A stretch of 24,000 nt of DNA, taken from positions 1,047 through 25,046 of the forward strand of contig JADZCK010000015.1 of NCBI GenBank assembly GCA_020851595.1. The letters run 5' to 3'. Position numbers and translations under genes: made by a program. Numbering within the stretch: the stretch's first letter is position 1; every line of letters begins with the position of its first letter. This DNA comes from Candidatus Nomurabacteria bacterium (GTDB lineage: Bacteria; Patescibacteriota; Minisyncoccia; Phycocordibacterales; UBA9973). The notes beneath the pieces are model-generated. The model ran no database searches, was not told the DNA's origin, and worked only from the letters and a program-made list of their open reading frames with translations. Below, piece after piece: positions 6,546 to 23,811 of the stretch.

Positions 6546-8048
6546 TTATAAAACTCCGTGTTTCTCGTGAAGCTTAGCCACCTCTTCTTCTTCTAACTCT
6601 TCCTTCTTTTCTTTACCACGCTCTCCTAGTGTCCTTAATTCTGCGTCGCCTAGCATATTTAACGATTTTGTAAGCTCAGATAGGTGTTCTACGGTGTTTT
6701 TCTCTGGCGCATCGAGGACTTCTTCGAGTAACGCATTCAAAATCCAGCCCATTCTAGGACCCGGATTGATGTCCAATTGATTTATCATATACTCCCCGTT
6801 TATCTTTAGCTGTCCGACAGAGATGGGGTCCCTTAGAGCTTCCTCGATCATCGCAAAGTATTTTCGTAAACGATAAGGTGCTTCTTTTTTCTTCATACCG
6901 ACTCTGTCACATTCACGTACATTCATAAGTGGCCAAATATTTTCTTTTCCAACTTTTGTAATAATTCTTCGTACAGCAGAAAGAGTTATGAGTTCTGTGT
7001 CAGAAAAGAACATATGGTTACGCACCAATTTTTCGACTAAGTCAATCTCTTTTTTTGAGAATTTTAATCTTTCCATGATTTTTTCAATCATTCTCGCTCC
7101 GATAACTTCGTGCCCATAAAAAGTATATTTCTTTTTTGCGCCACTTGGAGCTACGCGCCTGGATCTTGGTTTCCCGATATCATGAAAAAGCGCAGAAAGT
7201 CTTATTTCTAAAGGCCAATTCTTGTCTGCGGCATGTTGCAAAGCCATAAGCAAATGATTCCACACGTCGTATATATGTTCGCCTCCTTGCTCGCAACCTA
7301 TCCCCTCTTCTAATTCAGGAATTATATTTTTTAACAAATTAAATTTTTGTAACATCAAAATTCCACTTGCAGGATTTTTCGATAAAATTATTTTTACAAA
7401 TTCATCACGAATTCTTTCAAAAGAAATTTCTTTTATTAATTCAGAATTTTTTAAAATACTTTCCGTAACTTCATACGACACAGAAAAATCTAATTGACAA
7501 GCAAAGCGAATAGCGCGCAACATTCTAAGCGCGTCTTCTTTAAACCTATCATCTGCATGTCCTACAGCCTTTAATGTTTTATCTTTTATGTCTTTTAAAC
7601 CATTAAATAGATCAATAAGCTGTCCTTTAGAATTTAAAGCCAGTGCATTTACCGTAAAATCGCGTCTTTTAAGATCATCTTCTATGTTATCACTAAATTT
7701 AACCTCGTCAGGATGCCTAAAATCGCTATATTTAGCCTCTATTCTATAAGGAGTAACCTCTATAATCATATTTTCTGAAGTTCCTGCCTGCGCAGACAGG
7801 TCATGTGTAACAACCACCCCTACTGTTCCAAAACTATTTTCATATATAGTCTTCTCAAATAGACCCATAATCTGCTCAGGCTTAGCGTTTGTAGTAATAT
7901 CCCAATCTTTTGGTTCCCTACCCATAATAAGATCACGAACACAACCACCTACCAAATACGCCTCAAAACCAGCGCCTTCCAAGGTGTTTGTTACATGTGA
8001 AACTTCTTTGGGTATCTGAGATATTAAATTTTTAAGATTTTTTTCCAT
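6546..8048 (-). CDS. cca: CCA-adding enzyme / tRNA nucleotidyltransferase with HD domain
   Basis: GGCVRDLIMGREPKDWDITT nucleotidyltransferase motif, RRDFTVNALA, and HD motif LFHDIGKP. The start is moved to the ATG at 8048 (MEKNLKNL) because the longer track ORF (to 8117) runs through a tRNA gene. Confidence 0.88.
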   Translation of the reverse strand: MEKNLKNLISQIPKEVSHVTNTLEGAGFEAYLVGGCVRDLIMGREPKDWDITTNAKPEQIMGLFEKTIYENSFGTVGVVVTHDLSAQAGTSENMIIEVTPYRIEAKYSDFRHPDEVKFSDNIEDDLKRRDFTVNALALNSKGQLIDLFNGLKDIKDKTLKAVGHADDRFKEDALRMLRAIRFACQLDFSVSYEVTESILKNSELIKEISFERIRDEFVKIILSKNPASGILMLQKFNLLKNIIPELEEGIGCEQGGEHIYDVWNHLLMALQHAADKNWPLEIRLSALFHDIGKPRSRRVAPSGAKKKYTFYGHEVIGARMIEKIMERLKFSKKEIDLVEKLVRNHMFFSDTELITLSAVRRIITKVGKENIWPLMNVRECDRVGMKKKEAPYRLRKYFAMIEEALRDPISVGQLKINGEYMINQLDINPGPRMGWILNALLEEVLDAPEKNTVEHLSELTKSLNMLGDAELRTLGERGKEKKEELEEEEVAKLHEKHGVL

Positions 8049-8060
8049 TTTGGAAAAATG

Positions 8061-8131
8061 TGCGGCCAGAGAGAATCGAACTCTCGTCTCATCCTTGGCA
8101 AGGACGTGTTCTACCACTAAACCATGACCGC
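8061..8131 (-). tRNA. tRNA-Gly (anticodon GCC)
   Basis: Manual cloverleaf: GCGGUCA acceptor, GUUU/GAAC D stem, CGUCC-UUGCCAA-GGAUG anticodon arm, GAGAG-UUCGAUU-CUCUC T arm, discriminator A. No encoded CCA. Confidence 0.9.
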
Positions 8132-8186
8132 GTTATTAAATTTTAATAAACTACATTGACTTATAATGGCCTTATTGACACGATAA

Positions 8187-8209
8187 ACCACTAAACCATG
8201 ACCGCGTTA
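8187..8209 (-). repeat. Duplicated 5' fragment of tRNA-Gly(GCC)
   Basis: The 23 nt accactaaaccatgaccgcgtta are identical to 8113-8135, which is the first 19 nt of the tRNA plus 4 nt of upstream flank. The two copies are 51 nt apart. Confidence 0.85.
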
Positions 8210-8333
8210 GTTAATATTAATTTTCTAACCGTTCAATTATAATATTTTATTTAATATAATGCAATTTATAATTTAATCCTTAAAAAACAATCATATTTTG
8301 ATAACAAGATAAAATAATGTATAATTTATAAAT

Positions 8334-8405
8334 GCACCCGTAGTGAAATGGATATCACAACAGTCTTCGGAACTGTCGTTGGGGGTTCGAATCCCTCCGG
8401 GTGCA
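8334..8405 (+). tRNA. tRNA-Arg (anticodon UCG)
   Basis: GCACCCG acceptor, GUGA/UCAC D stem, ACAGU-CUUCGGA-ACUGU anticodon arm, GGGGG-UUCGAAU-CCCUC T arm. An extended -10 (TGTATAAT) lies just upstream. No encoded CCA. Confidence 0.9.
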
Positions 8406-8659
8406 CACGAGAAAGCAAAATACCAACTACTCAGTAGTGTCCAATACAATTTACCTATACAGATTATAGTTTATGCACAATTATGTTAAATATGTGGATA
8501 ACTGTGTTGGTAATGTTTATAAAGGACACTTCTAATAACAGTCTTTTGGAGTCATTTTTGTAGATTATATGTTGTTAAATAAAGATATTTTAATAAAAGA
8601 CACTAAAATTAAGCTTATTGTTTCACGTGAAACTTTTTAATATATGTTACATATGAAAC

Positions 8660-9070
8660 ATGCCTAAAGTATTTACTTCTAAGACTCAAAAAACAGGAGA
8701 AATAGGAGAAAATATAGCTGTGAAGTTTCTCATGAAACAAGGTTTTTCGATATCAGATAGAAATTACACTAAAAAATGGGGAGAAATAGATATAATTGCT
8801 GAAAAAGGGGGAAAATTGCACTTTATAGAGGTAAAATCAGTATCAAAACCAAATTTAAACATTGTTACACATGAAACTCTTGATCAATACCACCCAGAGG
8901 ATAATATGCACCCCTGGAAGCTTAAAAGACTCTCAAGGACAATTCAAACTTATCTCTTGTCCAATAAGATTCCAGATGATAGGGCATGGCAAGTCGATCT
9001 AATGGTTGTTTTTCTTGATATCACCAGCAAAAAAGCAAGAATAAAAATAGTCAGCGATATTATTTTGTAA
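8660..9070 (+). CDS. YraN-family (UPF0102) endonuclease-like protein
   Basis: 136-aa ORF with GENIAVKFLMKQGFSISDRNY...GEIDIIAEKGGKLHFIEVKS. Confidence 0.8.
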   Translation: MPKVFTSKTQKTGEIGENIAVKFLMKQGFSISDRNYTKKWGEIDIIAEKGGKLHFIEVKSVSKPNLNIVTHETLDQYHPEDNMHPWKLKRLSRTIQTYLLSNKIPDDRAWQVDLMVVFLDITSKKARIKIVSDIIL

Positions 9071-9090
9071 AAAATAGTTTAATTTTTCTG

Positions 9091-9161
9091 TGCGGGATAC
9101 CGGAGTCGAACCGGTCACCACAGTTTGGAAAACTGTTATTTTACCGATAAACTAATCCCGC
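9091..9161 (-). tRNA. tRNA-Gly (anticodon UCC)
   Basis: GCGGGAU acceptor, ACAGU-UUUCCAA-ACUGU anticodon arm, ACCGG-UUCGACU-CCGGU T arm. No encoded CCA. Confidence 0.9.
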
Positions 9162-9165
9162 AATG

Positions 9166-9236
9166 TCGGGCTGCTGGGAGTCGAACCCAGCCTAAATGCT
9201 CCCAAAGCACTTGTACAACCGATATACTACAGCCCG
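9166..9236 (-). tRNA. tRNA-Pro (anticodon UGG)
   Basis: CGGGCUG acceptor with the C1:G72 pair typical of bacterial tRNA-Pro, AGUGC-UUUGGGA-GCAUU anticodon arm, CUGGG-UUCGACU-CCCAG T arm. Confidence 0.9.
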
Positions 9237-12468: not shown

Positions 12469-12497
12469 TTGACATTTTAATTTAATTATGCTATAGT
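12469..12497 (+). promoter_or_regulatory. Strong sigma70-type promoter of the GC-rich operon
   Basis: TTGACA (12469-12474), a 17-nt spacer ending in TG-c, then TATAGT (12492-12497). It is followed by a ~135-nt structured leader and the SD AAGGAGG (12626-12632). Confidence 0.7.
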
Positions 12498-12638
12498 ATC
12501 TGCAGAGTTAATAAGTTCATTGATAGCTAGCAAGTTAATTTTTTCCGAAGATTTTGTGGGTGGTATTGTGGATATGAGATATTTCGTATCTAAAATACCG
12601 TCTGCAAATGCAACGGAAAAATAAAAAGGAGGAACGTC

Positions 12639-13055
12639 ATGAGTTATAAGCTCGTCGACGGTTCCCGGGGCAAGGCGCCCCGATTCGCGATCACGATGGG
12701 ATTGCAGGAGGGCTACGGCCCGACTGCAAAAAAACACCAGGTTGACGAGGTCGTCGACCTCGTCGAGGCATTTCTCAAGGCGGCCGCAGCCGCCGGGCGC
12801 CCGTACCTTACGGGATCCGTGACCACCGGAGTAGTGGTCTACGCTTGGCCGGAAGGACCCGGTCAGGCTGGCGGGGGGCACGAGCCCCAGGCCACGTACA
12901 GCGGGGAAGTGAACCCGTTGTACAACTCGGGGATGGCTGAGGGAGCCATCGTCGAGTTTCTTAACTCCCTCGCCTCGGTTCTAGGGTCTGCACTCGGGCA
13001 GACTCGGGTCTATGTCGTCTTCGCGGGCGACATGTGGATCCTCCAGGCCGAGTAG
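12639..13055 (+). CDS. Island ORF1, hypothetical protein (138 aa), GC-rich
   Basis: ATG lies 6 nt after AAGGAGG. Third codon positions are strongly G/C-biased. No family recognised. Confidence 0.7.
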   Translation: MSYKLVDGSRGKAPRFAITMGLQEGYGPTAKKHQVDEVVDLVEAFLKAAAAAGRPYLTGSVTTGVVVYAWPEGPGQAGGGHEPQATYSGEVNPLYNSGMAEGAIVEFLNSLASVLGSALGQTRVYVVFAGDMWILQAE

Positions 13056-13130
13056 TCCTCGGCCACACCGACAGGAGAGACGGTGTAATTTCTCTCCAAT
13101 CGAAAAAGGGGATAAGACTTTTCAAGTCAC

Positions 13131-13184
13131 GTCCTCTCCATTTTTCAGACCACAAAGAAATTTGCTGTCTGAATGGATGGAGTT
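13131..13184 (+). repeat. Element A, copy 1 (54-nt hairpin)
   Basis: 52/54 identical to 13961-14014. It folds as CUCCAU/AUGGAG + UUCAGAC/GUCUGAA + CAAA-GAAA-UUUG. Both differences fall in the apical tetraloop. Confidence 0.85.
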
Positions 13185-13211
13185 TGTTTCCTTGAAAAAT
13201 AAATAAACATC

Positions 13212-13265
13212 GTTTCCAGCGCAGAGTTTCTAAATTAATTTTTGGAAATTGTGTGCTGGAAACAG
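13212..13265 (+). repeat. Element B, copy 1 (54-nt hairpin)
   Basis: 52/54 identical to 14958-15011. It forms a ~20-bp stem gtttccagcgcagagtttct/ggaaattgtgtgctggaaac with three G-U pairs that work only on the + strand. Both differences are in the loop. Confidence 0.85.
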
Positions 13266-13317
13266 CAAAAAAAAGCAACACAAACCCACCTAGAAGGTGC
13301 GGGTTGAAGGAGAAAAC

Positions 13318-13860
13318 ATGAACGAAACTTTTTTTCTTGCGGTCATTTTGGCCATCGCAGTTTCTTTCCTTCTGAGGATCGTCCTCGGCGGGAAAAAAAC
13401 GATGGACATGCCGACCAAGTGGGCTCCGATCCCAAATCCTCCCGAAACCGAGGAGGAAAAAAAGAGAAAGGAGGTGAAAAAGCTCTTCGAGTTGGCGGAC
13501 GATATCGCCAACTACTTCGGGTGCGTGCTCTCAAGCAAGTTCTATGGTTCACCCTGGGGGTATGTTCATACCTCCAGGTACGAGGTCGTGGTGGGGGGCA
13601 ACAAGTTTGCCCTCTACCACAATATGGGGAAGAGAATCTGTCTTCTCGCAACCGGGGGAGAGGTTGAGCTCGGGGAGCAGGAGCTCCTCGACTCAGGGGT
13701 CATTGGACCCTTGGTCGAAGCCCTTGAAAAAGAGCTCGCGGTCCTCACGGAGGACCGTGACAAAGAAAGAAAAGAAGAAGAAAGAAGAGAAGAAAGAAAA
13801 AAAGAGGAAGAAGAAAGGAGAAGGGCGACTTGTGCCCTTCTCCGGAAAACTTTTTTATAG
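13318..13860 (+). CDS. Island ORF2, hypothetical membrane-anchored protein (180 aa) with KE-rich C-terminus
   Basis: ATG at 13318 lies 5 nt after GAAGGAG; the track's GTG at 13297 has no SD. It has an N-terminal TM helix FFLAVILAIAVSFLLRIVLGG and the C-terminal run DRDKERKEEERREERKKEEEERRR. Confidence 0.7.
   Translation: MNETFFLAVILAIAVSFLLRIVLGGKKTMDMPTKWAPIPNPPETEEEKKRKEVKKLFELADDIANYFGCVLSSKFYGSPWGYVHTSRYEVVVGGNKFALYHNMGKRICLLATGGEVELGEQELLDSGVIGPLVEALEKELAVLTEDRDKERKEEERREERKKEEEERRRATCALLRKTFL
13817..13856 (+). terminator. Terminator-like hairpin embedded in the last codons of ORF2
   Basis: 10-bp stem ggagaagggc/gcccttctcc (13817-13826/13834-13843), then ggaaaac and T6 (13851-13856). 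The stop codon is at 13858. Confidence 0.5.
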
Positions 13861-13960
13861 ACAAAACTTCTCTTGCGTGCCGTGACCACGCAGGTTTCAA
13901 TTATCTAGTTGATGTTACGGATCAACTCACAACGAGAGGATAAAAAGCTTTCATGCCTAA

Positions 13961-14014
13961 GTCCTCTCCATTTTTCAGACCACAAAATAATTTGCTGTCT
14001 GAATGGATGGAGTT
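13961..14014 (+). repeat. Element A, copy 2
   Basis: See copy 1. Here the apical loop is AUAA instead of GAAA, and all stems are retained. Confidence 0.85.
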
Positions 14015-14024
14015 CTTTAAAAAA

Positions 14025-14077
14025 GTTGATTCTGGGAATTTGTACATAAAATTTGCGTGCATATTCCCGGAATCAAC
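14025..14077 (+). promoter_or_regulatory. Element C: 15-bp hairpin preceding ORF3
   Basis: gttgattctgggaat / attcccggaatcaac, with one U-G pair that is valid only on the + strand, and a 23-nt loop. It occupies the same slot as element B in the other spacers. Confidence 0.7.
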
Positions 14078-14161
14078 AAGATAGAAAGGAGAGAAATTAA
14101 CTGCGTTTTTGTTTGGAACTCAGGAGCTTGAGGGAAGAACATTTACGCAAAAAAAGAAAAA

Positions 14162-14692
14162 ATGAAAAAAGTTTTTTCTTTTGACGCAGAGACCAACGGT
14201 CTCTGGGGCCAGGCTTTTGCCATCGGCGCGCTCGTCTATGACGAGAATGGCGTCGAGATAGCTCGATTCGTCGGACGGCTTCCCGAAACGGAAGTCAAAG
14301 ACGAATGGGTGAGGGCGAATGTCCTGCCTCAGTTGACCGCAGTCCCGGTCACCCACACGGATTACGCATCCTTGTTGGCCGACTTTGCTAAGTTCTACTT
14401 GGCAAATAAAGCTGACGCGGATATCGTAGTTCACATGGGAGTTCCTGTCGAGAGCAAACTGCTCATCGACATGCACTCCAGTGGGCTGATCGGCGACTGG
14501 GATGGTCCCTATCCGCTCTGCGACGTCGCGGGCAATCTCCAGCAGGCTGGGGAAGACCCGACGTCCGTAGACGGATACGTGCGCAAGCACGGGCTCGAAG
14601 TGCCGGAATTTGGTACGACGCACAATCCGCTGTATGACAGCGCGGTTGCCGCCGTAGCTTATCGGCATCTCTTGAGCCGTCGGACCGTCTAA
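14162..14692 (+). CDS. Island ORF3, DEDDh-type (DnaQ-like) 3'-5' exonuclease (176 aa)
   Basis: Exo I motif FSFDAETNGL (D8, E10) and Exo III motif HNPLYDSAVAA (H-x4-D). It is small and single-domain. No SD is present, only an A-rich leader. Confidence 0.75.
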   Translation: MKKVFSFDAETNGLWGQAFAIGALVYDENGVEIARFVGRLPETEVKDEWVRANVLPQLTAVPVTHTDYASLLADFAKFYLANKADADIVVHMGVPVESKLLIDMHSSGLIGDWDGPYPLCDVAGNLQQAGEDPTSVDGYVRKHGLEVPEFGTTHNPLYDSAVAAVAYRHLLSRRTV

Positions 14693-14868
14693 CGGTCGAC
14701 GCGTCAATCACTGGACCAGCAGTAAACTGGGAAAGCTCTCGGTAGAGTTGTAATGGTGGATACTAGAGCAGAAATCTGCGGAAGCTACTCCGAGAAAGAC
14801 CGCCCACTAAGCTTTGCTTTTGTGCTTTGAACAAAAGTTAATCACGGGGCTTGTGCAAAACGAGCCCC

Positions 14869-14931
14869 AACCGTCCACAGATATGTGTCTGTGCTGATGA
14901 GTCCTACGTTTACACTCAGGACGAAACGGTT
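14869..14931 (+). ncRNA. Hammerhead self-cleaving ribozyme, type III
   Basis: AACCGUC|CACAGA-uaugug-UCUGUG-CUGAUGA-GUCCU-(12 nt)-AGGAC-GAA-ACGGUU. All invariant core nucleotides are present. Stems I and II are capped and stem III is open. Predicted cleavage is after C14875. Confidence 0.9.
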
Positions 14932-14957
14932 AAGTTCTTTAAAATAATAAATAAAAT

Positions 14958-15011
14958 GTTTCCAGCGCAGAGTTTCTAAATTTGTTTTTGGAAATTGTGT
15001 GCTGGAAACAG
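14958..15011 (+). repeat. Element B, copy 2
   Basis: See copy 1. It lies 26 nt downstream of the hammerhead and 53 nt upstream of the ORF4 SD. Confidence 0.85.
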
Positions 15012-15077
15012 TAGAAAGCCCGTAAATCCTGACTTTCTGTTTTTTACAGATAAGCAGGTGGGCAAAAGGGAGAAAAA

Positions 15078-15899
15078 ATGTTCAGGATCAGAGAAAAGTT
15101 TGTTTTTGACGAGTCAAGATGTCCCGCTCTTTACGAGTGGAAGTACCCCCACTCGTTCCTTGCCGGCACAATCGCCGGCTGGTCCATCTTCTATCTGAAG
15201 ACCGGGAGGAATGCGGGGAATCGAGCGTTGATTGCTCGGTCCCCTGAAGGACTTTGGGGCTGGGCCCCGAAGCTCCACGATAACGTCCTCCTTGCCCTCG
15301 GAGAGGAGCTGGAGAGTGTAAAAGGAACCCTCCGCCTTCTGGCCAATTGCCAGGAGGCAGAGAAGCTCTGGGACATCAAAGATGTCCCGGGGTTCTCCAG
15401 CACCGATTCTGATTCATTGACGTATCACCATGATAAGTGGTATACGTCATCGTTGGTGGCGGCACCGTTGCCGCCACCGTCCTGGGCACCTGATGCCCAG
15501 GCTTGGTCCATCCGCGAGGGCGTATACATCGCCTTCCCGGATGATTCGTTCCGACTCGCGCGTGGACGCGAGTATCACGGGTTCCCCTTTGAGGGGAAAC
15601 CGGTCGCCCGACAGGGTGACTGCCTGATCTTCAGCCAACCTGAGGGGTGGGAGGCTCCGGTCAACCCTCTCACCAAAAAGTTTGATCGGTGGCAGGACAT
15701 GCTGGTGTATGACGGCGAGTTCACACTCGACCGCCACCACTTCGAGCCCGTAGAGGGCACTCAGGAATGGGTTTTGACCCATCCTGAACACAAAACTCTA
15801 AGAGTCCAGGCTCCAGAGCCTGGGCTTGGCACTACGTTCTGGGCAGCCCTTGTGCCTGGAACGTCGCGACCTTTCGGCAGTGGAGAGAATCTGGATTAA
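15078..15899 (+). CDS. Island ORF4, hypothetical protein (273 aa), GC-rich
   Basis: ATG lies 5 nt after AAGGGAG. The first codons are AT-rich and the rest is GC-rich. No family recognised. Confidence 0.7.
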   Translation: MFRIREKFVFDESRCPALYEWKYPHSFLAGTIAGWSIFYLKTGRNAGNRALIARSPEGLWGWAPKLHDNVLLALGEELESVKGTLRLLANCQEAEKLWDIKDVPGFSSTDSDSLTYHHDKWYTSSLVAAPLPPPSWAPDAQAWSIREGVYIAFPDDSFRLARGREYHGFPFEGKPVARQGDCLIFSQPEGWEAPVNPLTKKFDRWQDMLVYDGEFTLDRHHFEPVEGTQEWVLTHPEHKTLRVQAPEPGLGTTFWAALVPGTSRPFGSGENLD

Positions 15900-15933
15900 A
15901 AACCAGAGATTCTTCACAAAAGGTTGAATCCAA

Positions 15934-15977
15934 TACCCCTCCGACCTAGGTCGGAGGGGTATTTTTGTTTCTTTTTT
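15934..15977 (+). terminator. Strong intrinsic terminator closing the island operon
   Basis: 12-bp stem tacccctccgac/gtcggaggggta around a ctag loop, followed by tttttgtttctttttt. Confidence 0.9.
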
Positions 15978-17607: not shown

Positions 17608-17618
17608 ACTTGCACAAC

Positions 17619-19178
17619 ATGAAAGAAAAGTCTCCTGAAAATTATATTAATACTAGAAAAATAACCGACGAGGAGGCTTTGTATTTTGTAGAACACTTAA
17701 CAGAAGGACAGGAGATATTTAGTGGTAAAGAAAGGCTTGTTTTTGTTAAAAACATTTCAAATGGGAAAAAAGTCGTTTTGATTGACCCAGAACATTTAGA
17801 CAAAAATGGTAAGCCCCCAAAACATACCTTTTTAAAAGAAATACTCGTAGACATAATCAAACAAAACCCTATAAATATTCAAGATTTTGGAGCAACAGTC
17901 AAAAAAAGCGACCCAGAATTAGAAGAATTCAGAAAAGCTCAGAAAAAAGCAGTATTGTTGGAAAAGATAGGAAAAGAAGGCCTGCCTTTTATAGAAACAC
18001 TATCGGTAAGTGAAATAAAAGACAAAGACGTAGCCAAAAAAATAGCAGAGGTGAAGAAATTTGCAAAAATCGGGGAAGAGTCTCCTTACGGAAAATTGTC
18101 TATAAAAGAAATAAAAGAAAGAGCACTAAAAAATAAAGGGGGAAAAGTAAAAGCTCCGCAACAAATAGAAGCAAAAGAATCTTGGACAGAAAAAATATTA
18201 AAGAAGGTTGAAGAGAAAAGAAAAAAAGTTTTAGAAACATTTGTAAAAAAAAGTGGGTATTATGGAAAACTCGTACTTAAGGGAGCTACAGCTCTAGTAG
18301 CGTCTGTGGGTATTTTGCACGGAGAACTTGGAAGAAACACAGAAATATACACCTCTGCAAACACAAAAGTGGAAGAACCTGCGCCAAAACAAGAAACAGC
18401 AGAGGAAATATTAAAAAAAATAGAAGGACAGTTTGCAGAAAAAAATAATCGAGCAGAACAAATCAGAGAAGAATATGAAGAAAGAGAGGATTTTGCACAA
18501 AATGCTTTTAGAAAAGGAGAGGTGTCTGCAAAAGAAGCATTTGAAAATCCTATTTCGGGACAAACAGTAAAAAAAGAGGAAGGCTCGACAGAAGCCCCTG
18601 TATTTGAAACAGTTTACCCTTTGGAAATAAATCCAGAAAAAGATTTGGAGTTAAGAAAACAAGCAGAAGAGGAAGCAATAAAAGACTATTTAAAAAGTCT
18701 TGAGAACGGACAAACCGTAACAAACGAAACTAATGAAAAAGAAGAAGGAGTGCAAGAACTTTCTGCCCCAACACCCGAGCAAGTATATGAAGCAGAATCT
18801 ACCCCAACAAAAGTAGAAGAAGAAATCATTCCAGAACCTGAACCAGTTTCACCAAAAGAACAAGAAGAAATAAAACCAACACTGGTGGAATACCACCCCC
18901 TAACCCCCGAAACAATAAAAAATAAAGAAGATTTGATAAGTTACGTTTGCGAAAATGAATATGATCAAGAATTAAGATGGGGTCAATTGAAATATCTTAA
19001 GGCTGATGAAGTCATAAAACACAAAGGAATATCTAGTGTTGACCCAGCTTTTGAACGTTTGGCAAAATGTTTAAGAGAATTTAGAAAAAAAATAGGTGAA
19101 CCAAAAAGAAATTTATTGGGTATGCGTGATACCGTAGAGTCTTATGTTAACAAATGGATAAAATCTTTTAAAAAATAA
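17619..19178 (+). CDS. E/K-rich hypothetical membrane protein (519 aa)
   Basis: Track ORF trimmed to the first ATG. It has one hydrophobic segment, GKLVLKGATALVASVGILHG, and long low-complexity E/K/P stretches. Confidence 0.7.
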   Translation: MKEKSPENYINTRKITDEEALYFVEHLTEGQEIFSGKERLVFVKNISNGKKVVLIDPEHLDKNGKPPKHTFLKEILVDIIKQNPINIQDFGATVKKSDPELEEFRKAQKKAVLLEKIGKEGLPFIETLSVSEIKDKDVAKKIAEVKKFAKIGEESPYGKLSIKEIKERALKNKGGKVKAPQQIEAKESWTEKILKKVEEKRKKVLETFVKKSGYYGKLVLKGATALVASVGILHGELGRNTEIYTSANTKVEEPAPKQETAEEILKKIEGQFAEKNNRAEQIREEYEEREDFAQNAFRKGEVSAKEAFENPISGQTVKKEEGSTEAPVFETVYPLEINPEKDLELRKQAEEEAIKDYLKSLENGQTVTNETNEKEEGVQELSAPTPEQVYEAESTPTKVEEEIIPEPEPVSPKEQEEIKPTLVEYHPLTPETIKNKEDLISYVCENEYDQELRWGQLKYLKADEVIKHKGISSVDPAFERLAKCLREFRKKIGEPKRNLLGMRDTVESYVNKWIKSFKK

Positions 19179-19183
19179 TTTTC

Positions 19184-19423
19184 ATGAACAAAACAGGACA
19201 AAATACAGATGTTTCAGCACGTTTAAATAAATTAATATTTGAAGCGGTATTGATGCGTGTTTTGCCGATGCTCTCCGAAGAAAATCTTACAGAGTACGAA
19301 AAAATAATTGATTCAAAAGAAGTAGGCGAAGTGCTTTGGAATTTTTTAAAATCAAAAGTTCCGAATTTTGAAAATATAGTAAAAGAAGAGGAAGAAATTT
19401 TGAGAAAAGAATTGGAAAAATAA
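19184..19423 (+). CDS. Small helical protein (79 aa), resembles small proteins common in Patescibacteria (possibly DUF5663-like)
   Basis: The pattern LNKLIFEAVLMRVLPMLSEENLTEYEKII....EVLWNFLKSKVPNFENIVKEEEE resembles that family. The family name is from memory only. Confidence 0.6.
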   Translation: MNKTGQNTDVSARLNKLIFEAVLMRVLPMLSEENLTEYEKIIDSKEVGEVLWNFLKSKVPNFENIVKEEEEILRKELEK

Positions 19424-19485
19424 ACCGAAAAAGTTTGTTTAAATAGCGTTTAAAATTTAAAAGGGATATAATCTAAATAATTTAT

Positions 19486-20737
19486 ATGCCAAGAGAAACC
19501 TTAAAAATAATAGGGAGAAAAGTTCCCAAAAAAAAACACCGAGTTAAATGGTATCGTTTCTGATCAAAACAAAAACTCTTATAAAAAATCTCACAAAGAG
19601 AACTTTGATATTAGTATAAATAATCTAAAAAATAAATACCCATCAAGAAATATCCAGAAAACCAAAGAGAGCGTTGCTAAAAAAACAAAAAAAACTGTAG
19701 TAGAAAAACCAATTCCAGTAAAAATTGAAACACCTCCTCAAACTGAGGAAGAAATAGTAGACACTATCGTAGAACCTCGAGTTATAAAAGAAGAATTTAA
19801 CACACCTGAACCTATTACAGAAAACAGTGAAGACGTGTTTGGAATAGAGAACAAACCAATTGATTTAAAGGCACCTGACCAAGAAAATATTTTTGGCGTG
19901 GAACCCACACCAATAGTTAAAGAAGAAGATAATGTTGCAAAAAAAATAGCAGAAGTAAAAAAAAGACTTGCGGAGATAGAAAAATTAAAAGCAAAAAGTC
20001 TAAAAATACCAGAACCAGTAAACCTTGAACCAACCGAAAAACCTACAGAGTACGCACCAGCTGTTTCTGTGCCACCTTCGGTTTCCGAAGAAGCTCCTGC
20101 GCCCATAGAAAAAGAAAAAAATGAATTTGTTGTAGGACAAGTTGTAAAAATAAAAAGATCACCAAGCTCTGGTGGGCAAATTGAAGATGGTTGGATTGTC
20201 TCTGGTTTTACCGAAGATGGCAAGGTTATTGTCCGCGGAAAAACAATCGCAAAAGAAGGCGGAGTAAATGAATATCAACAAAGAACAGTGACACAAGAAA
20301 CACTTATTAATTGGCAAAAACTTGAAGCTGAAATAGATATAAGAGAAACAAACAATAAAGAGGAAGAGAGTTCTGAAAAGGATGATGTACTTAAGACAAT
20401 CGTAGGTGCAAGACACAGACTAGAAGATTTAGAGAAAGCAAAAAAAGCAGCATTGGATAAAATGGAGAAAGAAAAGAAAGAAGAGATGGTAAAAGCAACA
20501 CTAGAAATAGAAAGATTATCTCGAGAAAAAAGTGCTTTAGATAAAAAAATTTTTTTATTAAACACAGAATATCAAAAATTACAAAAAAGAAATGACTCTT
20601 TTTGGTCTAAAATAACCTTTGGAATATTTGTCGATGAAGAAAAAATGATGGAGCTTTCAGATGAAATAGCAACTCTAGAATCACAACAAAATACATTAAA
20701 AGAAGCGATAGAAAAAACGAGCAGATTATTAAATTAA
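19486..20737 (+). CDS. E/K/P-rich hypothetical protein whose frame is split at an A9 tract (19528-19536)
   Basis: ATG at 19486 (frame 1) gives MPRETLKIIGRKVPKKK..., stopping at 19561. Frame 2 is open from 19514 through 20737, that is 107 stop-free codons upstream of the track's GTG at 19835 in an AT-rich genome. The two frames overlap only around the A9 run. Confidence 0.55.
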
Positions 20738-20763
20738 TTAAATAATTAATTTACAGAAACAAT

Positions 20764-23700
20764 ATGACAATGGATCAACCACCAAAAAACGGAGAAGAAA
20801 TAAAAAACGAAAAAATTCTTTTAGAAATTGAAGAAACCTTGAAAATTATTGAGAAAGCGAAAGAAGAAGCTATTTGGCAATTGTCGCAAAGACAAGCAAT
20901 AATAAACCCTAATGACGAGGAAAGAATGGCAATAGCTGATTTTAAAGAACAAATAGAATTTTTTGAAAGAGAAAAAAGAAATCTAGAAAGAAGAAAAGCT
21001 GAAATTTTAAATACACAAAACGAAAGCCCCACACCAGAACCTGAAAAGCAACCACAAGAAGCAGAAAACCCCGAAGATGTTTTTGGGTTAGGGGAAGAAA
21101 CACCCGCTAATTTACAACCTGAATTAGAGATAGAACCTGAGTCTACTACTAAAATTTTACCAACAGAGACACCACAAGCTGTTGGAGAACAAACCCAACC
21201 AGAGCAAGAAAAACAACAAGAAAAAACAGAAGAATTAAAAGGTGAGATAAAAACATTTGTAGAAGAATTAAAACTAGAAGCCCTTTTGCCAAAAGAATTT
21301 AATAAGTTAACCGAAGCTCAACAAACAAAAGTAATACAAGATTTAAAACGTAGAATTGTCGACATTGTAAAATCAGATGCACAGACTCAGTATGCAGAAA
21401 AATTAAAAGATAGAGCTCTGTGGAATTCTGGAATACTAAAAATATTTGAATTTGTAGAAAAAGCACAAAATGCTTTATACAAAAAAGAAAAAGATTTACA
21501 AAATACAGAAAATGAAATTTTTACGAGATTTATAAAACAAAACAGAACAACTAATGAACTAATAAAACAAGATTTAGAAATACTAACAGCTAGAACAAAA
21601 GGAAGAGATGTGGTAGTAGAAAACGGAAAAGCTTATTTTAACTATTTTACAGGTAGCTCTGTGCTAATGGCAGGAGAACCAAATGTGCATAATTTTAACG
21701 AGAAAACTCATGGTTTTGTAAATATGCCTTATGAATGGGGACAAGAAAAGAGTGGTAAAAATAAAAAAACTTATGATAATGCAAAAAGAGAATACGAAGA
21801 AACGAGGAAAATAATACTAAAACAGGAAAATATAACACCAAAAGAAAAAGCAAGATTAACACAAAAAATGCTAGAAACAGACAACCTTGTAAAAATGGAA
21901 CAACTTTTGAATACTCATCCTGAGTTTGAAAAAGCTTTAAAAGATTTTGGAGAAAGTGCAAAAGGGCTAGAATTAATTAAAACTGGTAAAAAATTCTTGA
22001 AATCAATAACATTAGAACGAGAAAAACTTATGACTGCCAAAACAAAAACCAGATGGAGCACCAAAGCTGCAGCAATGTTTGTGGGTGGTACGATAGGAAC
22101 CACTATTACAGCTATAGCAGCGCCTGCTATCGGTGGAGTGGTTGGTTATTATAGAGGCAGAATGCGCGCAAAAGAAACTCTTACAGAAAGACAAATAAAA
22201 GCAAGACATGGAGAAAAAGACGAGAGCGAAGAAGCGACAAACACAGAAGACGTAGAAAAATTAAACAAAAGAATGGAAGGTATTTTGGAAGCTTTCGAAA
22301 AAGCTGGCACAGAAGAAGAAAAAGCAAAAAAACTTGATCAAATCAAAAGAAGAATAGAATATACCCAAAATAAAATAGAATCTAAACTTGTAAATTTTGG
22401 AGATTCTAAAAATGCGTTAAATAATCAATTTAATTTGGTAAACAATTTAAATAAAGCTTTGATAATTGCAGCTAGCTTAGAACAAACAACACGAAAAGAT
22501 ATAGATGCTAGACTAAAACAATTTCTTTCTTATAAAACAAAAAATATAAATGAGGTCCAAACTGTGTTTATTAAAAAGCAAGCAAGAAATAGCGCTCTGT
22601 TTGGGGCTGGATTTGCAACTGCTGGTTATATTGCGCGTTGGGCCGGAGAACATTTCGGCTGGTGGGAACGCACTGATAAAATAAAAACAGAAACACCAAA
22701 AATCACAAAAGAAGTAAAGCCAGAATTAGAGAAGACTGATAACTCTATAAAGCAAGAGATAATCCCTTCAAAAACACCAACGCCAAAACTCACACAGACT
22801 CCAAACCCAACAAATACACCAGAAATAAAGACCGTAGAAAAAATAAAACCTGAAGTACCCATAGAAAAAGAAATAGTAGCTCCGGTAGGAAAAGTAGCTG
22901 AAGTTTTTAAAGAGGAAAGTATTACTTTTAATAAAGGAAGTGGTGGTATTCAAGGAATAATTGACTTGAGGAGCCAAATAAAAAATCACTATAAAGGAGA
23001 TTATTCTGGTGCGCCACAAAGCGTACAGGAATTTATGAAAGAAAAGAATGTGATGAACTTGGCGAAAAAGCTTGGGTTCTTTGATCCTGATAGAAGAGAC
23101 GGAAAAGAGAGTGCTCTTATACAAGAAGGGTCGGTATTAAAATTTGACGAGAAGGGTAATCTTTTATTTGGAAAACCAGATGCGAATGGTAATGTTCCGG
23201 TATTAGAGAAATATCACGGAAAAATGTTTGATTCAGATCATAACGCAACAGCAAGTGAAAACACAGAAATAGCAGAACAAAATAATACAAAAACACATAC
23301 AATTGGATTAAAAGAAGAAACCTTCCCAACAAAAGAAGGACATCTAAACCCAGGAACAGCAGAAAATATATACGCTCCAAAAAAACATTCATTGGGAACA
23401 GGGGAAGAAAAATCATTTTTTGCTGATAAAATTGAAAAAATAAAAAATTTAAAAGAACAAATAGAAGCAAACATAGACGCAGAACGAACGGAAGGGTTGT
23501 CAGTTGATGAAAACTTAACTCCGACCGACAATTCAATTAATGAAACTTATAATAATACTATAAATAGCATTTTTCGAGAAAGCAAAAATGGAAACTGGGC
23601 GACAATAAGAGATGTGGGAACAAACCACTTTCTTCATAGTAATAATTATAATGAAGAAAATTATATAAATCTTAAAAATTATATAAATAAACTAATAGAA

Positions 23701-23811
23701 ACAACACACCAGAAACCCAAAAACGGAATATTTGGGTTTCTAGCTGAAACAAACGAAGAATATATAAAAAGGGCGATAAAATATGCCACTGAACACAATA
23801 TTGAAATGTAA
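20764..23811 (+). CDS. Large E/K-rich membrane protein (1015 aa)
   Basis: Coiled-coil-like N-terminal part. Hydrophobic segments are AAAMFVGGTIGTTITAIAAPAIGGVVGYY and ALFGAGFATAGYIARWAG. No family recognised. Confidence 0.75.
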   Translation: MTMDQPPKNGEEIKNEKILLEIEETLKIIEKAKEEAIWQLSQRQAIINPNDEERMAIADFKEQIEFFEREKRNLERRKAEILNTQNESPTPEPEKQPQEAENPEDVFGLGEETPANLQPELEIEPESTTKILPTETPQAVGEQTQPEQEKQQEKTEELKGEIKTFVEELKLEALLPKEFNKLTEAQQTKVIQDLKRRIVDIVKSDAQTQYAEKLKDRALWNSGILKIFEFVEKAQNALYKKEKDLQNTENEIFTRFIKQNRTTNELIKQDLEILTARTKGRDVVVENGKAYFNYFTGSSVLMAGEPNVHNFNEKTHGFVNMPYEWGQEKSGKNKKTYDNAKREYEETRKIILKQENITPKEKARLTQKMLETDNLVKMEQLLNTHPEFEKALKDFGESAKGLELIKTGKKFLKSITLEREKLMTAKTKTRWSTKAAAMFVGGTIGTTITAIAAPAIGGVVGYYRGRMRAKETLTERQIKARHGEKDESEEATNTEDVEKLNKRMEGILEAFEKAGTEEEKAKKLDQIKRRIEYTQNKIESKLVNFGDSKNALNNQFNLVNNLNKALIIAASLEQTTRKDIDARLKQFLSYKTKNINEVQTVFIKKQARNSALFGAGFATAGYIARWAGEHFGWWERTDKIKTETPKITKEVKPELEKTDNSIKQEIIPSKTPTPKLTQTPNPTNTPEIKTVEKIKPEVPIEKEIVAPVGKVAEVFKEESITFNKGSGGIQGIIDLRSQIKNHYKGDYSGAPQSVQEFMKEKNVMNLAKKLGFFDPDRRDGKESALIQEGSVLKFDEKGNLLFGKPDANGNVPVLEKYHGKMFDSDHNATASENTEIAEQNNTKTHTIGLKEETFPTKEGHLNPGTAENIYAPKKHSLGTGEEKSFFADKIEKIKNLKEQIEANIDAERTEGLSVDENLTPTDNSINETYNNTINSIFRESKNGNWATIRDVGTNHFLHSNNYNEENYINLKNYINKLIETTHQKPKNGIFGFLAETNEEYIKRAIKYATEHNIEM

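Follow-up and report, generated by a model that had tools for sequence, protein, structure and literature searches.

A type III hammerhead ribozyme, genuine as far as its sequence can tell and predicted to cleave itself, lies in the spacer between the third and fourth genes of a four-gene block (about 12500-15960) on a Candidatus Nomurabacteria (CPR) contig. It is likely that this ribozyme, which belongs to a CPR lineage, self-cleaves co-transcriptionally and thereby uncouples ORF4 from ORF1-3. The analysis covered a 24-kb stretch of the contig (24,000 nucleotides, hereafter the window), and the features discussed are collected in Table 1. The analysis shows the motif and its significance, its covarying conservation, the strand and place in which it lies, and the repeated occurrence of such ribozymes near genes of the ORF1 and ORF4 families. 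The finding adds a Patescibacteria/CPR lineage to the hammerhead census and ties hammerheads to a recurrent neighbourhood, the SAM-lyase-like ORF1 cassette and the ORF4 family; what is known of hammerhead chemistry is unchanged, and no new kind of element is involved.

Table 1. Features of the window and of the sister loci (positions without a locus prefix are those of the window)
Feature	Position	Strand	Remarks
Type III hammerhead ribozyme	14869..14931	+	full-length Rfam alignment, MFE fold, own descriptor, own covariance model, covariation in homologs
Stem III	14869-14874 with 14926-14931	+	6 bp, open to flanking RNA
C17	C14875	+	predicted cleavage between 14875 and 14876
Stem I and loop	14876-14893	+	
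Core CUGAUGA (C3 U4 G5 A6 N7 G8 A9)	14894-14900	+	
Stem II and 12-nt loop	14901-14922	+	stem II 5 bp
GAA (G12-A13-A14)	14923-14925	+	
GC-rich 9-bp hairpin	14846..14868	+	GGGGCUUGU-GCAAA-ACGAGCCCC; abuts 5' edge of stem III
D3 copy 1	13131..13184	+	54-nt extended hairpin; spacer 1, slot equivalent to that of the hammerhead
D3 copy 2	13961..14014	+	spacer 2; 96% identical to copy 1
Hairpin B, spacer 1 copy	13212..13264	+	differs from spacer 3 copy only in the loop
Hairpin B, spacer 3	14957..15010	+	long, imperfect, 24-nt arms; between ribozyme and ORF4 ribosome-binding site
Promoter, near-consensus sigma-70 type	12469..12497	+	TTGACA, 17 nt, TG-TATAGT; 11/12 matches; upstream of ORF1
ORF1	12639..13055	+	138 aa; SAM-lyase-like fold (AF2 pLDDT 96)
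ORF2	13297..13860	+	187 aa; membrane protein, N-terminal hydrophobic helix, Lys/Glu-rich tail
ORF3	14162..14692	+	176 aa; putative DEDDh-type 3'-5' exonuclease
Shine-Dalgarno AAGGGAG	15066-15072	+	
ORF4 start ATG	15078-15080	+	
ORF4	15078..15899	+	273 aa; NCBI protein IT399_00820
Intrinsic-terminator-like palindrome	15932..15963	+	perfect, 16 nt, then TTTTGTTTCTT; downstream of ORF4
L026 type III hammerhead	84 nt after ORF1 homolog	ORF1 strand	
L036 type III hammerhead	before DEAH-type helicase gene	ORF1 strand	
L041 type III hammerheads, two copies	one closing each 600-nt direct repeat	ORF1 strand	
L045 type III hammerhead	L045:3071-3160, 50 nt after ORF1 homolog	ORF1 strand	core CCGAUGA (U4C)

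Motif, fold and database score

Read on the plus strand, positions 14869-14931 are AACCGUC/CACAGAUAUGUGUCUGUG-CUGAUGA-GUCCU(12-nt loop)AGGAC-GAA-ACGGUU, the slash marking the predicted cut. The initial annotation had read the element as a canonical type III hammerhead and had placed it after ORF3 and ahead of ORF4, on the coding strand; when the window was re-read, its quoted sequence, its core coordinates and its placement of the element were all correct, and the class assignment is upheld by a full-model Rfam alignment and by five homologous ribozymes with compensatory changes. The pairs adjoining the core are present, namely A14926:U14874 (15.1:16.1), G14901:C14922 (10.1:11.1) and C14876:G14893 (1.1:2.1), and the cleavage triplet GUC (G14873-U14874-C14875) satisfies the N-U-H rule, with H17 not G. 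Stems III, I and II are 6, 7 and 5 bp long. Stem I had been described with 6 bp, 14876-14881 with 14888-14893, all of which pair as described; a seventh can be added through U14882:G14887, a U:G pair common to all six related ribozymes. The topology is that of type III, since stems I and II end in loops while stem III opens onto the flanking RNA, and the type III model (HH3) is the best-matching Rfam member of clan CL00010.

How well does this RNA fold into the expected shape? The minimum free energy (MFE) structure of the 63-mer is the exact three-way junction, and the hammerhead fold is still the MFE structure when 30 nt of context are added on each side (P 0.41). When the full spacer is folded, the hammerhead lies at most 0.3 kcal/mol from the MFE, and the flanking hairpins fold independently. 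The folding z-score of the isolated 63-mer is only -1.6, so the evidence consists of the motif and its conservation and not of thermodynamic stability alone. Fast cleavage at physiological Mg2+ requires a tertiary contact between loops I and II, for which the only candidate seen, by eye, is a possible pairing of 3-4 bp between G14885-G14887 and C14913-C14915. Unlike the window copy, the sisters at loci L026 and L036 have stem II capped by a GAAA tetraloop.

Rfam Hammerhead_3 (RF00008) describes type III hammerheads of viroids, satellites, eukaryotes and bacteria. Its positions 1-54 align in full with the window copy at 41.4 bits, with an E-value of 8.6e-8 over 401 nt and of 8e-7 when 3.75 kb are searched. 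The window copy shares with the model the invariant core (C3-A9 and G12-A14), A15.1:U16.1, G10.1:C11.1, the GUC triplet, the capped stems I and II and the open stem III; it falls short of the curated gathering score of 48.5 bits through 5 extra nucleotides in loop I, its 12-nt loop II and the unpaired state of the outermost model pair. Because 41.4 is below 48.5, standard annotation overlooks the element: a default Rfam scan of the window at gathering thresholds returned four tRNAs only, and the hammerhead became visible in E-value mode alone. The initial annotation had listed a sub-threshold covariance-model score among the grounds for refutation, and the score is formally of that kind. We do not take it as a refutation, since the E-value is about 1e-7 and all of the sisters miss the threshold likewise; the figure missed is a database cutoff for annotation, not a biological criterion. 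A further Rfam search for other known ribozyme classes found none in the GC-rich block or in 17 related CPR loci.

Our own descriptor, which allows all three hammerhead topologies, has exactly one match in the 24-kb window. A relaxed version of it, with stems of at least 4, 3 and 3 bp, produced 4 matches in 300 dinucleotide shuffles of the window, or about 0.013 per window, and on this frequency chance is excluded for the motif. With our own covariance model the window copy scores 75.6 bits.

Sister ribozymes in other CPR genomes

Five sister type III hammerheads occur near ORF1 homologs, and on the same strand as these, in other CPR genomes: one each at L026, L036 and L045, and two at L041. 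Every sister is below the HH3 gathering score; all six copies, at 32-45 bits against 48.5, imply that CPR hammerheads are probably under-counted. Together these putative ribozymes are a CPR (Patescibacteria) hammerhead lineage that Rfam's HH3 threshold has missed. The invariant core is present in the window copy and in four sisters, hence in five copies out of six, with L045 as the exception. Loss of core nucleotides at homologous loci had been proposed as a sign against the motif; the core is kept in four of the five sisters, and the U4C change of L045 implies that some copies may be decaying. The L045 hammerhead is orthologous to the L026 copy and combines U4C with a long insertion in stem II, and it may be weakened or in decay.

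Alignment of the six sequences with a covariance model built from five of them gives 94% paired cells, and both sides have changed at 10 of 17 pairs; since a structure-based descriptor and model had a part in choosing the sequences, some of the pairing near the core is built into these figures. None of 500 shuffles matches the observed pairing, and slid controls drop to about 30-44% paired. Invariant across the six are A15.1:U16.1, G10.1:C11.1, C17 and the apical U:G of stem I. The compensatory changes, with the core invariant in five of six, indicate selection on what would be the catalytic fold. The cleanest evidence of such selection, as judged from sequence comparison, is the pair L026 and L045, in which the spacer flanks are near-identical and stems I and III are fully compensated. 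All six ribozymes also have in common a motif, WTCAYRG ... CAAAA, about 40 nt upstream (14836-14868 in the window), so the conserved module is larger than the ribozyme itself.

The distribution of hammerheads is sporadic, with one or more present at about 5 of the 22 loci of the ORF1 family and at 2 of the about 14 of the ORF4 family, and no hammerhead was found at the nearest ORF1 relatives, L043, L044 and L046. The second ORF4-family case is of another topology. At L007 a type II hammerhead (L007:485-553; 41.1 bits against a gathering score of 37) lies exactly between an upstream gene and an ORF4 homolog (36% identity), 30 nt from the start codon of the latter. Other ORF4-family loci have mostly spacers of 10-60 nt without a ribozyme. 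The ORF4 family is thus preceded by hammerheads of two topologies in unrelated loci.

Might the hammerhead be present merely by descent, carried on a mobile noncoding spacer module (hairpin, hammerhead, AT-rich linker and long hairpin) that spreads and shuffles between cassettes, of no benefit to ORF4 expression and perhaps inactive or weakly active? The sporadic occurrence among ORF1 and ORF4 loci fits this explanation, as do the U4C variant, the shared upstream motif, the hammerhead-ended direct repeats of L041, and the duplicated and recombined spacer modules of the block itself, in which D3 and the hammerhead sit in equivalent slots and are followed by the same AGTTCTTTAAAA. Compensation at 10 of 17 pairs and a core invariant in five of six copies speak instead of selection on the catalytic fold, and the two topologies found before ORF4-family genes argue for a function tied to the downstream gene. 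We therefore consider carriage without function unlikely, and keep to self-cleavage that uncouples ORF4 as the preferred reading.

The arrangement at L041, an Adlerbacteria MAG, deserves description for itself. Two direct repeats of about 600 nt, 92% identical (L041:1500-2100 and 6725-7310) and each ending in a hammerhead, flank 5.2 kb with the ORF1 homolog and a gene for a viperin-like radical SAM enzyme, and a third, partial copy of the repeat follows the first. Two ribozymes of the same sense could release a defined 5.2-kb RNA.

The four-gene block and its spacers

The coding parts of the block have 50-56% GC, against about 30-35% in the spacers and promoter of the block and in the host flanks, the latter at about 33%. 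A comparable contrast is seen at the ORF1 loci of other low-GC CPR genomes (L038, L034), which suggests a common, laterally moving gene pool, and the block was probably acquired laterally. A chimeric assembly as the source of the GC jump was rejected, since the synteny of a TrmB gene with ORF1 is found again in other CPR MAGs, as is a similar contrast in GC. No convincing direct repeats or att sites bound the GC-rich block, a megablast of the block against phage genomes gave no match, and prophage structural genes are absent. The flanking genes are ordinary CPR chromosome genes. Further off in the window, a cluster of four tRNA genes (8061-9236) adjoins a gene of the CCA-adding enzyme / poly(A) polymerase family. 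The latter ORF, listed as 6546-8117, runs into the tRNA at 8061-8131, and it probably has its true start further downstream than listed. On the other side, 17610-23811 holds large plus-strand ORFs (522, 300 and 1015 aa) with a very strong excess of A over T (AT skew 0.3-0.46), and those of 300 and 1015 aa have no Pfam match.

None of the four ORFs of the block has a match in Pfam, NCBIfam or PADLOC. The best structural match of the ORF1 model is the phage SAM lyase 6ZNB (E 2.6e-5, TM 0.67/0.73), and the CRISPR-associated SAM-AMP lyase 9GAB is also among the best. Its family comprises more than 100 CPR proteins, up to 78% identical and without a Pfam model, is GC-rich relative to its low-GC hosts, and is absent from IMG/VR. 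We recovered 17 loci of the family from diverse CPR genomes; as in the window, a divergent TrmB-like regulator often lies upstream, and the other neighbours vary (NDK, a DEAH helicase, a viperin-like radical SAM enzyme, an HD domain protein, MoxR). ORF1 anchors a CPR-wide cassette family. ORF2 has no family match in Pfam, PHROG or NCBIfam searches. ORF3 had been labelled an exonuclease; the basis for this putative assignment is the DEDDh-like motifs FDAETNG and HNPLYD, seen by eye, and a weak PHROG match to 'RNase H' (E 2e-4), and ORF3 had no match in Pfam, NCBIfam or the PDB. Relatives of ORF3, about 50% identical, occur on IMG/VR viral contigs. ORF4 belongs to a rare family with the motifs WAPDAQAW, RQGD, HPEH and PGTSRPF, which occurs for the most part on contigs of phage-like character that also carry DnaB, HNH and phage zinc-binding genes. 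The search yielded about 14 separate loci of the family, and GTDB representative genomes lack it. As to its function, the AF2 model has a pLDDT of 65, Foldseek against the PDB reached a TM of at most 0.15, and Pfam, PHROGs, NCBIfam and PADLOC returned no match.

The ribozyme thus lies between co-directional genes in a setting with phage links: a phage SAM-lyase fold in ORF1, and relatives of ORF3 and ORF4 on viral or phage-like contigs. A consensus scan of the ORF3-ORF4 spacer (spacer 3) found no promoter-like site with at least 9 of 12 matches, to be read with the caution that CPR promoters are poorly known and that internal promoters in AT-rich linkers are possible. A weak terminator-like site follows ORF2. 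The predicted promoter before ORF1, the terminator-like palindrome after ORF4 and the promoter-free spacer would fit a single four-gene transcription unit, and we infer co-transcription from them.

Spacer 3 is 385 nt long and highly structured (z = -7.5). All three intercistronic spacers follow a common plan, in which a module is succeeded by GTTCTTTAAAA or AATAAATAA, a long hairpin and a Shine-Dalgarno sequence; the module is D3 in spacers 1 and 2 and the hammerhead in spacer 3. The AGTTCTTTAAAA that comes after D3 copy 2 is also found after the hammerhead. Neither D3 nor hairpin B has further copies in the window or a match in Rfam, and hairpin B has no match among viral contigs. Both could possibly be RNase III sites. 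D3 was rejected as a second ribozyme, being a plain extended hairpin without Rfam match and, by eye, without a hammerhead core. The spacer hairpins were likewise rejected as integron attC sites: the RYYYAAC / GTTRRRY core sites are absent by eye, and the nearest tyrosine recombinase gene (1927-2856), the only one in the window, is 10 kb away.

The plan shared by the spacers invites a broader and speculative idea, which we hold to be distinctly improbable: that the three spacers act as modules of an RNA-processing system peculiar to the phage-host-conflict cassettes of CPR genomes, with a cleavage module (hammerhead or D3), an AT-rich linker, a long hairpin and a Shine-Dalgarno sequence before each cistron. 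D3 would then be the equivalent of the hammerhead, either a site of the RNase III type or a self-cleaving motif not previously described. If this were so, processing would leave each gene on a separate mRNA, stabilised individually.

The GC-rich hairpin at 14846-14868 would stand 7 nt from the 3' end of the predicted upstream product, the last 60 nt of which have a z-score of -3.9. The hairpin has no U-tract and so is not an intrinsic terminator. Could the ribozyme serve mainly as a terminator substitute that gives the ORF1-3 (or ORF3) transcript its 3' end, with ORF4 transcribed from a promoter of its own in the AT-rich linker? The position of this strong hairpin, immediately 5' of the ribozyme, agrees with such a role, and -10-like hexamers such as TAAAAT can be seen by eye in the linker at 14932-14956, the same linker that follows the D3 hairpin in the other spacers. 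Nevertheless we judge it very unlikely that 3'-end formation is the main role, given the outcome of the promoter scan of spacer 3 and given L007, where 30 nt between the type II hammerhead and the start codon leave no room for a promoter. Conserved protection of the upstream product by a 3'-terminal hairpin was also rejected: the hairpin is significant in the window and in none of the five sister loci, which makes it a local feature and weighs against the terminator substitute too.

Predicted processing and known systems

If, as we prefer, cleavage uncouples ORF4 from the preceding genes, how would this come about? A hammerhead leaves a 2',3'-cyclic phosphate on the upstream product and a 5'-OH on the downstream product. 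While the polycistronic RNA was being made, the ribozyme would fold and cut after C14875 by internal transesterification. The upstream product, with ORF1-3, would end in the cyclic phosphate 7 nt beyond the stable GC-rich hairpin, and the downstream product, with ORF4, would begin with a 5'-OH at C14876, a nucleotide paired in stem I. In its 5' region the ORF4 RNA would carry first the ribozyme body, then hairpin B and then the Shine-Dalgarno sequence. Expression of ORF4 would in this way probably be uncoupled from that of ORF1-3, through a different stability and a defined 5' UTR. As with co-transcription of the four genes, we infer cleavage in vivo and the effects on RNA stability and translation, including their direction for ORF4.

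That direction could in principle be the opposite one. No self-cleaving ribozyme of bacteria other than glmS is known to have an established influence on what becomes of its mRNA. Like glmS, the window hammerhead would be a cis-acting self-cleaver in an mRNA leader, and in glmS the 5'-OH product sets the stability of the downstream mRNA; glmS differs in ribozyme class, in its requirement for a metabolite and in its location in a 5' UTR, and the window copy shows no evidence of ligand control. In Bacillus subtilis the 5'-OH product of glmS cleavage is reported, in work by Collins and colleagues from 2007, to decay in an RNase J1-dependent manner. On this precedent, and with an RNase Y gene on the related CPR contig L046, cleavage might destabilise the ORF4 mRNA by exposing a 5'-OH product to RNase J or RNase Y, so that the last gene is tuned down. 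Such an outcome seems to us very improbable, because the new 5' nucleotide, C14876, would be base-paired in the 7-bp stem I, an obstacle to a 5' exonuclease that can start only from an unpaired end, and because the long hairpins downstream suggest protection. Uncoupling with a defined ORF4 leader is the reading that we retain.

The layout is reminiscent of RiboJ, reportedly made by Lou and colleagues in 2012 as a synthetic insulator from the type III hammerhead of sTRSV and a hairpin upstream of the ribosome-binding site. The order of parts is the same (type III hammerhead, hairpin, ribosome-binding site) and is also found at L036, and in both systems cleavage, here predicted, strips off the RNA that precedes the element and gives the remainder a structured 5' end. 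In RiboJ, a compact engineered part, the 23-nt hairpin adjoins the ribosome-binding site, whereas 146 nt separate the ribozyme from the ORF4 ATG in the window, including the 54-nt hairpin B and about 55 nt more. The initial annotation had drawn this parallel and treated the layout as an apparently natural counterpart; the analogy is fair, and natural hammerheads before start codons and between prophage genes were already on record (PMC3088659).

Perreault et al. described hundreds of bacterial hammerheads near prophage genes in 2011 (PMC3088659). Those ribozymes flank single genes or short gene blocks, polycistronic constructs of about 2 kb cleave in vitro, and for a halovirus hammerhead (HHphage), situated 13 nt ahead of a start codon, the 5' end has been mapped (PMC3088659). 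The window hammerhead resembles them in its position between co-directional genes, in a block with phage links that was probably acquired laterally, and in the role proposed, which is to cut a long transcript into gene-length mRNAs. It differs in that it is single, where those are several and flank the gene or genes (spacers 1 and 2 have D3 instead, and L041 has two hammerheads), in its CPR host, and in lying within modular, duplicated structured spacers. Ribozymes in such positions have been known in bacteria and phages since 2011, and the window is a new example and not a new phenomenon; our literature search found no paper connecting hammerheads with Patescibacteria. Processing of polycistronic RNAs by hammerheads was still a suggestion in need of more work in a 2019 review (PMC6765202), and the block offers a concrete system for testing this long-standing and unproven idea that bacterial hammerheads process polycistronic mRNAs and set the relative expression of neighbours.

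Arrays of hammerheads were also seen on viral contigs. Four IMG/VR contigs (L022, L023, L024 and L025) carry tandem arrays of 4-6 type I hammerheads on one strand, about 300-800 nt apart, a multi-ribozyme phage arrangement of the sort already described in 2011 (PMC3088659).
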